Source: Acidobacteriota bacterium
Lineage (GTDB): Bacteria; Acidobacteriota; UBA6911; RPQK01; JADFOI01
Assembly: GCA_963663035.1 (NCBI GenBank)
Contig: OY760074.1
Coordinates: 1,344,001-1,408,000, forward strand
Reading direction: 5' to 3'
DNA: 64,000 bases
In this document: in pieces, positions 45,888 through 48,239 of the stretch
Layout of the letters: each line of letters starts with the position of its first letter
Position numbering within the stretch: the stretch's first letter is position 1
Notes under the pieces: model-generated
Databases searched by the model: none
What the model was told of the DNA's origin: nothing
Seen by the model: only the letters and a program-made list of their open reading frames with translations
Position numbers and translations under genes: made by a program

Positions 45888-45919
45888 TTGACCCCGTAGT
45901 ATGGTACAGGGTGCATCAT
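45888..45919 (+). promoter_or_regulatory. MerR-type promoter/operator
   Basis: TTGACC, a long (~20 nt) spacer containing the dyad ACCCCGTA-N6-TACAGGGT, then CATCAT. Confidence 0.8.
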
Positions 45920-45937
45920 AAGGTACTGGAGGTGAAA

Positions 45938-46348
45938 ATGGCGTTGACCATTGGAGAAATAGCCAAACGTGCCGGGATCGGCCTCGAAACCGTCCGGTTC
46001 TATGAGCGCAAAGGACTCATTGAGGAACCACCGCGAACAGATTCGGGTTATCGCCAGTACCCAGAAGATGTGGTAGCTCGGCTCCGCTTCATCAGCCGCG
46101 CAAAGGATCTTGGATTCTCGCTGAAGGAAATTGCAGAGCTATTCTCTCTCCGGGTTGATCCGGACACAACCTGTGCCGATATTAAGAGACGAGCCGAAGC
46201 CAAGATTACAACGATCGAAGAGAAGATTCGTGACATGCAAGGGATTCAGGGTGCACTTTCCAAGTTGGCTGCTTCATGCAGCGGAAGCGGCCCGGCGGGT
46301 GATTGCCCCATCTTAGAAGCACTGGACAGCCAGGAGAAAGACTGGTGA
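45938..46348 (+). CDS. MerR-family heavy-metal-responsive regulator
   Basis: LTIGEIAK..ETVRFYERKGL and GFSLKEI motifs; three Cys (TCAD, SCSG, DCPILEAL). Confidence 0.95.
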   Translation: MALTIGEIAKRAGIGLETVRFYERKGLIEEPPRTDSGYRQYPEDVVARLRFISRAKDLGFSLKEIAELFSLRVDPDTTCADIKRRAEAKITTIEEKIRDMQGIQGALSKLAASCSGSGPAGDCPILEALDSQEKDW

Positions 46349-46366: not shown

Positions 46367-46636
46367 ATGACGACAAAACGACGAATCGAAGTTTTCGGTG
46401 CGGGATGTCCCGCTTGTGAGGAAACCATCAGGCTCGTAAAAAGTGTTGCCTGTCCATCCTGTGAAGTCACAGTCCTGGACATGAATGATCCAAGCGTGGC
46501 AAGCCGAGCCAAGAGCTTGGGTATTCACTCGGTTCCATCCGTCGTTATCGACGGACAACTCGCTGATTGCTGCGCGGGTCGCAGTCCAGATGAAGCAACG
46601 CTGCGATCCGCAGGGCTGGGCCAGCCGATTACCTAA
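46367..46636 (+). CDS. Small Cys-rich thioredoxin-like protein
   Basis: IEVFGAGCPAC, CPSC and VPSVVIDG..CC motifs. Confidence 0.85.
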   Translation: MTTKRRIEVFGAGCPACEETIRLVKSVACPSCEVTVLDMNDPSVASRAKSLGIHSVPSVVIDGQLADCCAGRSPDEATLRSAGLGQPIT

Positions 46637-46664: not shown

Positions 46665-47009
46665 ATGGAGACAATCAATATGAAGGTTTTGCTTGGCGTT
46701 GGCACCGTTGTGGCTGCGGTTGGGGCCTCGCTGTGTTGCATCGTACCAGTTGCCGTGGTTTTAGTAGGAGTGGGGTCAGCTGCTCTAGGGGCACAGTTGG
46801 AGCCGGTCCGTCCTTTCTTCCTTGGATTGACACTGCTCCTCGTAGGAATCGCCTTTTATCAAGTTTACAGGCCTGACAAGGACTGCGACCCAGGACAAAG
46901 CTGTGCAACACCCGAAGGCCAGCGGCGACAACGCATCATTGTATGGATAGCGGCAATCCTGGCGGCAGTAGTAGCGGCGTTTCCCTATTACATGGGTTGG
47001 ATCATCTGA
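46665..47009 (+). CDS. merT: MerT-like metal transporter
   Basis: ASLCC in TM1, LEPVRP, loop CDPGQSC and FPY; 3 TMs. Confidence 0.85.
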   Translation: METINMKVLLGVGTVVAAVGASLCCIVPVAVVLVGVGSAALGAQLEPVRPFFLGLTLLLVGIAFYQVYRPDKDCDPGQSCATPEGQRRQRIIVWIAAILAAVVAAFPYYMGWII

Positions 47010-47034
47010 CCAATGAAGTGAATGGATATTGTTA

Positions 47035-47382
47035 ATGGTTAAAGCAATTTTGACGGCTTTTGTATTGGGCGGTCTCGCCCTTGGTATTTGGGCCGGTTCG
47101 GACCTGTGGACTGCAACCTCGGAAATGACGATTGAGGCGATGGGGGAGCAGGAAAAGGCGGTATTTTACGTGACCGGAATGACGTGAAGTGGATGTGACG
47201 CCGCCGTGAAACTAGCGGTAAGAAAATTGGACGGGATTCACCAAGTCGAGGCTTCCTACAAAGAGGGCACAGCCGTCGTAGTTTATGAACCATCTACAGT
47301 ATGTCTGGAGGAAATCAAGGCCGCGATTGACAAAGTTGGCTTCAAGGCCGAACTGCAAAGTGAGGAAGAGCTAACTCAATGA
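47035..47382 (+). CDS. MerP/HMA-domain selenoprotein (GMT-U-SG-C; Sec at TGA 47185-47187), absent from ORF track
   Basis: Manual translation gives MVKAILTAFVLGGLALGIWA...VFYVTGMT*SGCDAAVKLAVRKLDGI..ASYKEGTAVVVYEP..IKAAIDKVGF. The TGA sits exactly at the first Cys of the HMA motif, and the stop overlaps the next ATG (ATGA). Confidence 0.85.
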
Positions 47383-47852
47383 GTGAATCGTGCTGCTCTA
47401 CCTTGCATAGACCACCCGATACACGATCCTGTCCGGTCAGTGACTTTCGTAGTAAACCCGTAGAGTGGTCGACCGTTGCTGCGTTGGCTGCGGGACCTGT
47501 CCCGCAACGGCAATGTTTCTGGTTGTGCGAGGACTCAGATTGCGATGTCGTGTACTTCGGCGAGGACGGAACACTCCTGGGAACCAGTGATGTGCGTGTG
47601 ATCCCCAGTTTCAAGGGAAGTCCAAGCCAAAGCGATCTGGTCTGTTACTGTTTTCTCTACAGCCGCCAAGACATAGCAGACGAGTTGCAAGCAAGTGGAG
47701 ATACAACGATCTTTGACCGTGTGACCGCTGAAGTTAAAGCCGGAAATTGTGCCTGCGAGGCGCGAAATCCTTCAGGCAAATGCTGTCTAGGGGCTGTGAA
47801 AAAGGCTATTCAGGAAACTCGTGAGAAATTGCAGATGAGACAAGAAACATGA
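47379..47852 (+). CDS. CopZ N-terminal-like Zn/[2Fe-2S] (BFD-like) protein
   Basis: CP, FWLCEDSDCDVVYF, VCYCF and CACEARNPSGKCCLG motifs. Confidence 0.85.
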   Translation: MSESCCSTLHRPPDTRSCPVSDFRSKPVEWSTVAALAAGPVPQRQCFWLCEDSDCDVVYFGEDGTLLGTSDVRVIPSFKGSPSQSDLVCYCFLYSRQDIADELQASGDTTIFDRVTAEVKAGNCACEARNPSGKCCLGAVKKAIQETREKLQMRQET

Positions 47853-48239
47853 AGACTAAACTGCCCTTGGACCTAGTCTTTTTGCTTATCCCTTTGGGGC
47901 CTGTATATAGGGTGGCAGCAGCATGGCGTGCAGCTACCATTCTTTCTCGGTATTTCGCAGCCTTCATTCGGTCAGCTTAGTCGTTAGGCTGGGATCGTTG
48001 GGTGAGGAACCCAACAATATGACTCTCCATTCTTGACGTTTTACCAACTTTTCAGGTCGGTTTTCCCAGATTCAGCGTCAATCGTCGAAAGTAAGCTCAT
48101 TATGGTGGGTTTTCTCCTATGTCTGCTTACATCTCATGCGGACAAACGTGACACTAGGCTGATCAGTATATTCATCGTTTGACTGCTACATGTACCATGG
48201 GTGTAGTCACCCTTATCATCCTCGAAAGGAGGTAGCGAC

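Follow-up and report, generated by a model that had tools for sequence, protein, structure and literature searches.

A merP-like gene with a conserved in-frame UGA codon in an Acidobacteriota bacterium probably encodes a selenocysteine-containing HMA metal-binding protein

We analyzed a 64,000-nucleotide stretch of DNA from an Acidobacteriota bacterium (GenBank assembly GCA_963663035.1, contig OY760074.1, positions 1,344,001 to 1,408,000 of the forward strand), referred to below as the window, and found that the interval following its merT gene holds a gene, merP(U), that very probably encodes a genuine selenoprotein. The product is a MerP-like, probably exported HMA metal-binding protein, in which selenocysteine (Sec) would replace the first cysteine of the GMT-C-x-x-C motif. 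The gene displays a recoding signature, its product has an HMA fold, the host genome holds the Sec machinery, and the gene lies in a conserved cassette. Selenium would be incorporated at the internal UGA, and the protein would be exported and would bind a soft metal that is handed on within the cassette.

The region 47035–47382 (+ strand) forms a single frame of 115 codons, whose sole internal TGA is codon 51 (47185–47187). A sequence-only reading made before this work had proposed that the apparent gap after merT contains a complete 115-residue HMA gene, and the frame and the Pfam HMA match confirmed its coordinates and motif. The same reading held that the only interruption is a TGA at the first metal-binding Cys and that the stop is coupled to the next start. 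Both statements proved accurate: GMT-U-SG-C can be read directly and aligned to the Cys orthologs, and the terminating TGA overlaps the following ATG. The features of the gene are as follows.

47035..47382, + strand: merP(U), the whole proposed selenoprotein gene, 115 residues plus stop; the ATG at 47035 is common to all full-length orthologs
47035..47094, + strand: hydrophobic N terminus MVKAILTAFVLGGLALGIWA; judged from the sequence, it probably serves as a signal peptide or signal anchor
47161..47346, + strand: HMA domain, residues 43–104, covering Pfam PF00403 positions 1–62 of 62
47185..47187, + strand: UGA as probable selenocysteine, residue 51, first ligand of U-x-x-C; in the Cys orthologs, the aligned position is the invariant first Cys of GMTCxxC
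47194..47196, + strand: TGT, Cys54, second ligand of U-x-x-C; invariant column C54
47200..47219, + strand: candidate Sec insertion sequence (SECIS) hairpin GCCGC-CGUGAAACUA-GCGGU, starting 12 nt after the UGA, with a 5-bp stem
47380..47382, + strand: terminating TGA, overlapping the ATG at 47379–47381 of the next gene (ATGA coupling)

The read-through product begins MVKAILTAFVLGGLALGIWAGSD and continues ...AVFYVTGMT-U-SGCDAAVKLAV.... Translation table 11 splits this frame into 47029–47187 (52 aa, from TTG) and 47206–47382 (58 aa), and in public gene calls it appears as two pieces, a "hypothetical protein" of 50 aa and a fragment of 58 aa. We considered two separate small genes and rejected this possibility because the start of the 58-aa piece falls within the first helix of the HMA fold. 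Nor does the TGA stem from an assembly error: Logan contigs bridge 47185–47187 in three runs from three studies (X2, X3, and X6), and no difference is listed at these positions in any of four sequencing runs, one of which may be the source sample. The ATGA overlap recurs in relatives, with the end of the HMA gene matching the start coordinate of the CopZ-N-terminal gene in L022, L023, L172, L174, and L175 (here and below, L numbers denote the loci compared, G000 the source genome, and G001 and G003 congeneric genomes).

The N terminus consists of one Lys, a 16-residue hydrophobic run, GIWA, and then an acidic flank, and GIWA is kept in all seven full-length sequences of the clade described below. 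This arrangement makes export of the product plausible, a view also favored because other Sec forms of the phylum carry lipoprotein leaders.

We then compared codon 51 among relatives. In six other genomes of the genus, an ortholog was present in G001 and G003 (84–85% identity), both with TGA at codon 51, and the merP(U) query gave only weak matches to the HMA domains of P-type ATPases in the other four. Metagenome contigs, scanned with a downstream-peptide pattern that is blind to codon 51, carried TGA there in 6/6 cases (83–88% identity). Homologs with TGA at this codon, proposed earlier as a check, were thus found in 2/2 congeneric orthologs and 6/6 metagenome contigs. Across the nine sequences of this Sec clade, codon 51 is TGA in 9/9, and the downstream half is free of stops and indels. 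Between G000 and G003, codons 52–115 comprise 56 identical, 4 synonymous, and 4 nonsynonymous codons, compared with 29, 9, and 12 for codons 1–50. The part of merP(U) after the TGA is under purifying selection and evolves more slowly than the part before it.

Cysteine occupies column 51 in more distant relatives, namely in six remoter orthologs of the same family and order (36–53% identity) and in the three nearest proteins of a 5.8-billion-protein collection (50–64% identity), the latter being three hits from eight candidates under word-index limits, a count that says nothing on rarity. The close homologs keep TGA rather than TGC or TGT, the latter being the pattern that had been named as evidence against recoding; other TGA cases exist, and Cys is found in the remoter orthologs. 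Three unpublished genomes entered these comparisons: G017 (L027) supplies one of the six Cys orthologs, one MerA score, and a row of alignment A1; G202 (L154) supplies one Cys-form row in the fold, stem, tree, and neighbor counts; and G083 enters only the 401-genome HMA tally described below. Dropping all three alters no conclusion.

These data bear on the simplest competing explanation, that a nonsense mutation has made merP(U) a pseudogene of which only the 50-residue N-terminal peptide is produced, the HMA part being dead. Such a reading would account for the frame broken under table 11, the 50-aa "hypothetical protein" of the gene callers, the weakness of the hairpin, and the decay of the nearby merC in the source genome. 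We nevertheless consider it extremely unlikely. The TGA sits at one codon in nine sequences that diverge by 12–17%, it coincides exactly with the motif Cys, and the halves 3' of it are intact and show stronger conservation than those 5' of it. In addition, the gene-call cluster of the N-terminal piece has 15 members, 14 of them exactly 50 aa long, and all six that were inspected end at the same place (...VTGMT). Finally, TGA recurs at this column in ten other HMA genes, as described below.

The read-through product matched Pfam HMA PF00403 over the full model (E 1.2e-14; 54.8 bits, cut-off 24.8), and in its GMTCxxC motif the second Cys is present and the codon of the first is replaced by TGA. 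An AlphaFold2 model, built on nine orthologs, showed a beta-alpha-beta-beta-alpha-beta arrangement (strands 40–47, 68–74, 79–84, and 104–107; helices 54–63 and 91–101), with a predicted local distance difference test score above 90 for residues 41–100 and below 50 for residues 1–36. In this model, helix 1 opens with Cys54, and residue 51 is part of the beta1-alpha1 loop. The best Foldseek matches of the model are HMA domains, including MerP 1osd_A (TM score 0.95, root-mean-square deviation 0.9 Å). A profile search of Protein Data Bank sequences concurred with the HMA assignment, the closest solved relatives being mostly copper ATPase domains and CopZ.

Family membership was less clear-cut. The MerP equivalog TIGR02052 gave only 35.5 bits, below its cut-off of 92.55, which counts against a strict MerP assignment. 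The best NCBIfam match was NF041115 (69.3 bits, below the cut-off of 95), and the motif here is UxxC rather than UxxU. The same model was the best match for 8/8 other scanned Sec-form HMA proteins, and the scores of all nine, 65.8–84 bits, fall under the cut-off. Models of cytoplasmic CopZ, NF033795, NF033794, and NF047957, gave 56.3, 49.9, and 42.7 bits, short of cut-offs of 91, 95, and 85. The merP(U) product is not a leaderless CopZ of ~65–70 aa, having 42 extra N-terminal residues with a hydrophobic segment. Against NF045683, a MerT/CopZ fusion-like model with a cut-off of 375, the separate merT and merP(U) products scored 90.6 and 34.5 bits.

Next, we asked whether the host can decode UGA as Sec. 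The source genome is complete (3.59 Mb) and encodes a tRNA-Sec that scores over the Rfam cut-off (66.1 bits) and is also called by ARAGORN, together with selB (370.1 bits), selA (559.3), and selD (378.4), all over curated cut-offs. There is one selB copy over the cut-off; the next matches, at 196 bits, cover model positions 1–262 only and are EF-Tu-like. A host without Sec machinery, the other circumstance that had been named as speaking for a plain nonsense mutation, is therefore not what we found. The selD gene is itself a selenoprotein gene with an in-frame TGA (...VDCAG-U-ASKL...; L018, outside the window at G000:C1:3111136-3112059); the hairpin of selD follows its UGA immediately and does not exceed that of merP(U) in strength.

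TGA is an ordinary stop in merT, merP(U), and copZN (the gene following merP(U)), so the code as a whole is standard. A reading of TGA as Trp or Gly under an alternative code was rejected on these grounds and because the anticodon of tRNA-Trp is CCA. It could also be proposed that Sec is not the residue, or not the sole residue, placed at the UGA: recoding might insert Cys or Trp through a suppressor, a SelC*-type tRNA-Cys, or near-cognate reading, or selenium-dependent termination might serve to switch copZN. Excerpts of PMC5389517 describe tRNA-Sec-like allo-tRNAs of Acidobacteria as possible suppressors and SelC* tRNA-Cys(UCA) in other phyla, and excerpts of PMC4513850 indicate that recoding competes with termination; the ATGA coupling would place copZN translation under dependence on merP(U) read-through. 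Suppressor and SelC*-type tRNAs are disfavored, however, because among the 51 tRNAs called by ARAGORN in the complete genome the UCA anticodon occurs only in the tRNA-Sec scoring over the Rfam cut-off, and the single tRNA-Cys has the ordinary GCA anticodon. With one selB over the cut-off and selA and selD present, we judge this alternative as a whole to be very unlikely.

The candidate SECIS element is the weakest line of the case for Sec, although it is well placed. The E. coli fdhF element is spaced at roughly the same distance, ~12 nt, from its UGA. The sequence-only reading had described a modest hairpin at 47200–47219, starting ~12 nt after the UGA, and both position and description were accurate (−6.4 kcal/mol). 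Codons 53–62 are nucleotide-invariant across the nine Sec-clade sequences, with the exception of codon 55. Among degenerate codons with an invariant amino acid, the ratio of nucleotide-invariant to variable codons is 9:1 for codons 52–64, compared with 15:9 for codons 1–50 and 16:9 for codons 76–115. This synonymous-site conservation near the UGA fits an RNA constraint and is suggestive only, the counts being small. A stem of ≥5 bp whose loop spans nucleotides +22 to +25 after the codon, where the GUG of a conserved Val codon lies, was found in 12/13 Sec forms compared with 44/140 Cys forms; the Fisher p of 2e-5 for this excess overstates the case because the sequences are related.

Several results weigh against the hairpin. 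Its folding is unexceptional (z −0.82), as 37/200 shuffles fold as well, and because it is invariant in the nine sequences there is no covariation to test. No Rfam family matched 46900–47500 at E values up to 10. In the +9 to +50 segment, the shuffle z of Sec forms (mean −0.005) did not separate from that of Cys forms (0.11; Mann-Whitney p 0.36), and the lower raw fold energy of the Sec forms accompanies a higher G+C content (0.66 versus 0.59). The hairpin also has an alternative register, GCC being repeated, and longer folds were unremarkable (z −0.54, +0.26, and +1.10 for 61, 91, and 121 nt). The outer stem of the 61-nt fold, GUGGAU/AUUCAC, was dropped as a candidate, as it is broken by AGU>ACC/ACU in G001 and L175. 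In sum, the hairpin lies 12 nt downstream and is invariant in nine sequences, but it is weak and lacks covariation or an Rfam match; a role of 47200–47219 as a SECIS element is compatible with these data but not demonstrated.

To place merP(U) in a broader context, we considered HMA genes in 401 sampled genomes of the phylum; an HMA match at E ≤1e-8 was present in 179 of them. Thirteen places flagged with one TGA were fetched, 11 from this sample and 2 from the ortholog search. The TGA fell exactly at the first Cys codon of GMTCxxC in 10/13; the remaining places were two Cys forms with TGA elsewhere and one Cys form. Independent TGA cases, the existence of which had been suggested as a check, are thus represented by ten genes in other HMA lineages of the phylum.

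L157–L162, L165, L166, L168, and L169 (other genomes of the phylum): further HMA genes with TGA at the first Cys codon

Most of these ten Sec forms begin with lipoprotein-like leaders, and they are 27–37% identical to the merP(U) protein, less than its Cys orthologs are. The eight that were scanned fall below every NCBIfam cut-off. UxxC HMA proteins, apparently exported to judge from their leaders, are common in the phylum and lack a curated model. A contig scan patterned on the Cys codon could return Cys forms only and is uninformative on Sec-form frequency. Six of the ten share ALAVRQ, PLAVRQ, or ALAVSQ, which encodes a hairpin of the CUGGC-CGUGC-GCCAG type at the same distance from the UGA.

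In a quick tree of 66 columns, in which most forks are unresolved, the Sec label needs four changes, of which the starred (supported) branches force only one. The merP(U) Sec clade has an SH-aLRT support of 100 (Shimodaira-Hasegawa-like approximate likelihood ratio test) and is nested among Cys MerPs of merTPA operons, the deeper branches being unstarred.

The merP(U) gene is the fourth of a co-directional cassette, whose other members and flanking remnant are listed here.

45911..46348, + strand: MerR-family metal-responsive regulator, first cassette gene (Pfam MerR-DNA-bind, MerR_1, and MerR)
46367..46636, + strand: small thioredoxin-like protein carrying CPAC and lacking a hydrophobic N terminus (Pfam Thioredoxin_3, E 1.5e-9)
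46665..47009, + strand: merT-family membrane transporter (PF02411, 94.2 bits); its first helix contains CC and a loop reads CDPGQSC; stop TGA
47379..47852, + strand: copZN, a CopZ-N-terminal-type protein with zf_CopZ PF18423, a BFD-like [2Fe-2S] domain (PF04324), and an N-terminal CC
47886..47954, + strand: frameshifted merC remnant, matching MerC residues 51–73 of the intact G003 gene by tblastn (69.6% identity)

The regulator scored 135.3 bits against NCBIfam MerR TIGR02051, under the cut-off of 150.85, and ZntR and CueR models scored similarly. The thioredoxin-like protein reached 30.4 bits against TIGR00412, below the cut-off, and the same gene lies 5' of merT in metagenome locus L172. MerT scored 80.4 bits against NF010314, under the cut-off of 150; its gene ends at 47009, merP(U) starts at 47035, and this order is shared by relatives. 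The copZN product passed NF047645 (CopZ_Nterm_CC; 113.1 bits, cut-off 100) and is presumed to be the cytoplasmic partner of the merP(U) system. NF047645 has a sister model, NF045877, for a CU selenoprotein form.

Among the nine Sec-clade loci, copZN lies 3' of merP(U) in 9/9 and merT is present in seven, the other two being cut upstream. Whole or partial merC occurs in four, and merA in none of the nine. In G003, merC is intact (114 aa) 3' of copZN; the remnant region of the source genome spans 47849–47980, where a 43-codon open reading frame still begins at an ATGA overlap with copZN. By blastn against G003, the remnant has 72/87 identities with gaps, and the N-terminal part including the CC motif is missing. 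The regulator is swapped among close relatives, with MerR plus the thioredoxin-like gene in G000 and L172 and a CsoR-type regulator in G003, L170, and L174; the genuine merTPA operons of L024 and L027 likewise have a CsoR-type regulator upstream.

The nearest Cys orthologs are encoded in regulator-merT-merP-merA operons (L024, L027, and L028, and by partial matches L025 and L026), whose MerA proteins scored 552.9, 578.6, and 532.4 bits against TIGR02053 (cut-off 454.45). Across all loci compared, copZN adjoins 12/19 Sec-form and 32/124 Cys-form loci and a MerA-like gene 1/19 and 47/124, respectively; these counts are descriptive only, as the loci are kin and were gathered in different ways. 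Among the six "ALAVRQ"-type Sec forms, copZN adjoins three. The Cys orthologs mostly lie in merT-merP-merA operons, and the Sec clade has exchanged merA for copZN. Overall, copZN neighbors HMA genes in 44/143 loci, L157, L158, and L160 among them, making HMA and CopZ-N-terminal proteins encoded as separate genes a recurrent module.

The most economical reading of these data is that the merP(U) protein is a MerP-like entry-point binder, passing a soft metal via MerT to a cytoplasmic CC-bearing Fe-S protein. MerP and MerT are a textbook pair, and a selenolate as the exposed first ligand should capture thiophilic metals more tightly and faster. In the mechanism that we propose, the ribosome would reach UGA-51, where the hairpin 12 nt downstream would recruit SelB with Sec-tRNA(Sec) and Sec would be inserted. 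Translation would run on until it meets the second UGA, where a hairpin of this kind is lacking, and would then be coupled via ATGA to copZN. The hydrophobic N-terminal segment would carry the HMA domain over the inner membrane, and Sec51 and Cys54 on the beta1-alpha1 loop would bind a soft metal in two-coordinate fashion as Se-M-S. The metal could then be handed to the CC pair of the adjacent MerT and, on the cytoplasmic side, to the CC-bearing CopZ-N-terminal [2Fe-2S] protein, whose gene occupies the place of merA in this cassette.

Judged from family relationships, the bound metal is most likely Hg(II), with Cu(I) as the main alternative. The merTPA ancestry favors Hg(II), as do the MerT and MerC families; the CopZ-type partner and CsoR-type regulators, together with the lack of MerA, make Cu(I) an alternative to be taken seriously. 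Three observations speak against the mercury part of our interpretation. No MerA over the cut-off was found in the source genome, where the best match (391.8 versus 454.45 bits) is a PRK06370-type FAD oxidoreductase (792.6 bits); merC is only a remnant there; and relatives differ in their regulator, some having a MerR-type and others a CsoR-type protein. The oxidoreductase that follows merC in G003 is without the C-terminal CC of MerA.

It is possible, although in our view distinctly less probable, that merP(U) is a selenoprotein with another role, serving as a membrane-tethered or exported chaperone for Cu(I) or another soft metal that works with copZN as a split CopZ, and not as a mercury-uptake MerP. 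This would suit the lack of merA in the cassette and over the cut-off in the genome, the association of Sec forms with copZN rather than MerA-like genes in the counts above, and the CsoR-type regulators of G003, L170, and L174. The CopZ models also score as well as the MerP model (56.3 and 49.9 versus 35.5 bits), and by profile the closest solved relatives are mostly copper ATPase domains and CopZ. The nearest Cys orthologs, however, lie in merT-merP-merA operons with MerA passing TIGR02053, and two such operons also have CsoR-type regulators. Furthermore, in the quick tree the Sec clade (SH-aLRT 100) branches among the MerPs of merTPA operons, albeit with unstarred deeper branches, and MerT and the MerC remnant belong to mercury-transport families.

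A more speculative extension of the MerP-like reading, which we regard as doubtful, is that merP(U), MerT, and copZN form a merA-independent soft-metal relay derived from a classical merTPA operon, in which the selenolate at the point of entry would capture traces of a thiophilic metal, Hg(II) or another, whose fate would be sequestration, Hg-Se chemistry, or use, and not reduction to Hg(0). If this were true, Sec gain and merA loss would be functionally linked.

Compared with known systems, the merP(U) protein shares with MerP (1osd, 1afi; TIGR02052) the HMA fold, a GMTCxxC-type site on the beta1-alpha1 loop, an N-terminal hydrophobic leader, and a gene directly after merT. It differs in its proposed Sec as first ligand, in a ~20-residue linker before the domain, in having no merA in the operon or over the cut-off in the genome, and in its TIGR02052 score below the cut-off. 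The UxxU protein of NF041115 likewise consists of a lone HMA domain whose metal motif contains Sec, whereas merP(U) is UxxC with one Sec. The merT and merP(U) products align to positions 9–117 and 142–229 of the 235 positions of NF045683, and because both align along this model the pair looks like a split fusion; unlike the fusion, merT and merP(U) are separate genes, and MerT here is of the ordinary CC type. The UxxC motif of P-type ATPase selenoproteins presumably lies in the N-terminal HMA domain of the ATPase. That domain is a cytoplasmic part of an efflux pump, whereas the merP(U) protein is small, stand-alone, probably exported, and encoded beside an importer; the UxxC replacement is the same, as far as review tables describe these cation-transporting ATPases (PMC9312934, PMC13188914).

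Sec-containing MerP and HMA proteins have already been predicted computationally, and the kind has been catalogued since at least 2008. A table of the Global Ocean Sampling (GOS) selenoproteome study counts "Mercuric transport protein MerP" as a selenoprotein family already known at the time, in a row with 2 sequences, no motif, and 0 Cys homologs (PMC2398784). Going by this table entry alone, that protein resembles merP(U) as a Sec-containing MerP-type protein predicted from TGA. The term "MerP" occurs 0 times in the main texts of two reviews from 2022 and 2026 (PMC9312934, PMC13188914), whose tables include MerT selenoproteins, UxxC cation ATPases, the UxxU protein NF041115, and a Sec CopZ-type [2Fe-2S] protein. 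Excerpts of the latter review describe NF041115 as a UxxU metal-binding (seleno)protein, "putative mercuric reductase," and MerT selenoproteins as C/SxxU, and excerpts of a preprint report MerT-family selenoproteins with a CU motif (10.1101/2022.07.06.499078). Full-text literature searches, which did not cover supplementary files, returned no functional study of a Sec-containing HMA protein. The earlier remark that Sec MerP-like proteins had been predicted computationally and remained uncharacterized agrees with PMC2398784, with the review tables, and with the outcome of these searches.

The gene is missed by ordinary gene calling, and because no NCBIfam selenoprotein model reaches its cut-off either, mer-type cassettes of these bacteria are annotated with a hole at the entry-point metal binder. 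Current curated models would name neither the merP(U) protein nor the eight other UxxC HMA proteins of the phylum. The Cys orthologs at 36–64% identity, most of them in merTPA operons, provide a natural Sec/Cys comparison. Such a pair could show how a selenolate affects the affinity, exchange rate, and oxidation resistance of an HMA metallochaperone, an effect for which our literature searches found no published test.

Finally, the source genome holds two tRNA-Ser(UGA) genes with identical Rfam scores (G000:C1:2173-2262 and 3571390-3571479), located ~2 kb and ~23 kb from opposite ends of its single contig; the pair may reflect a repeat near the assembly ends.

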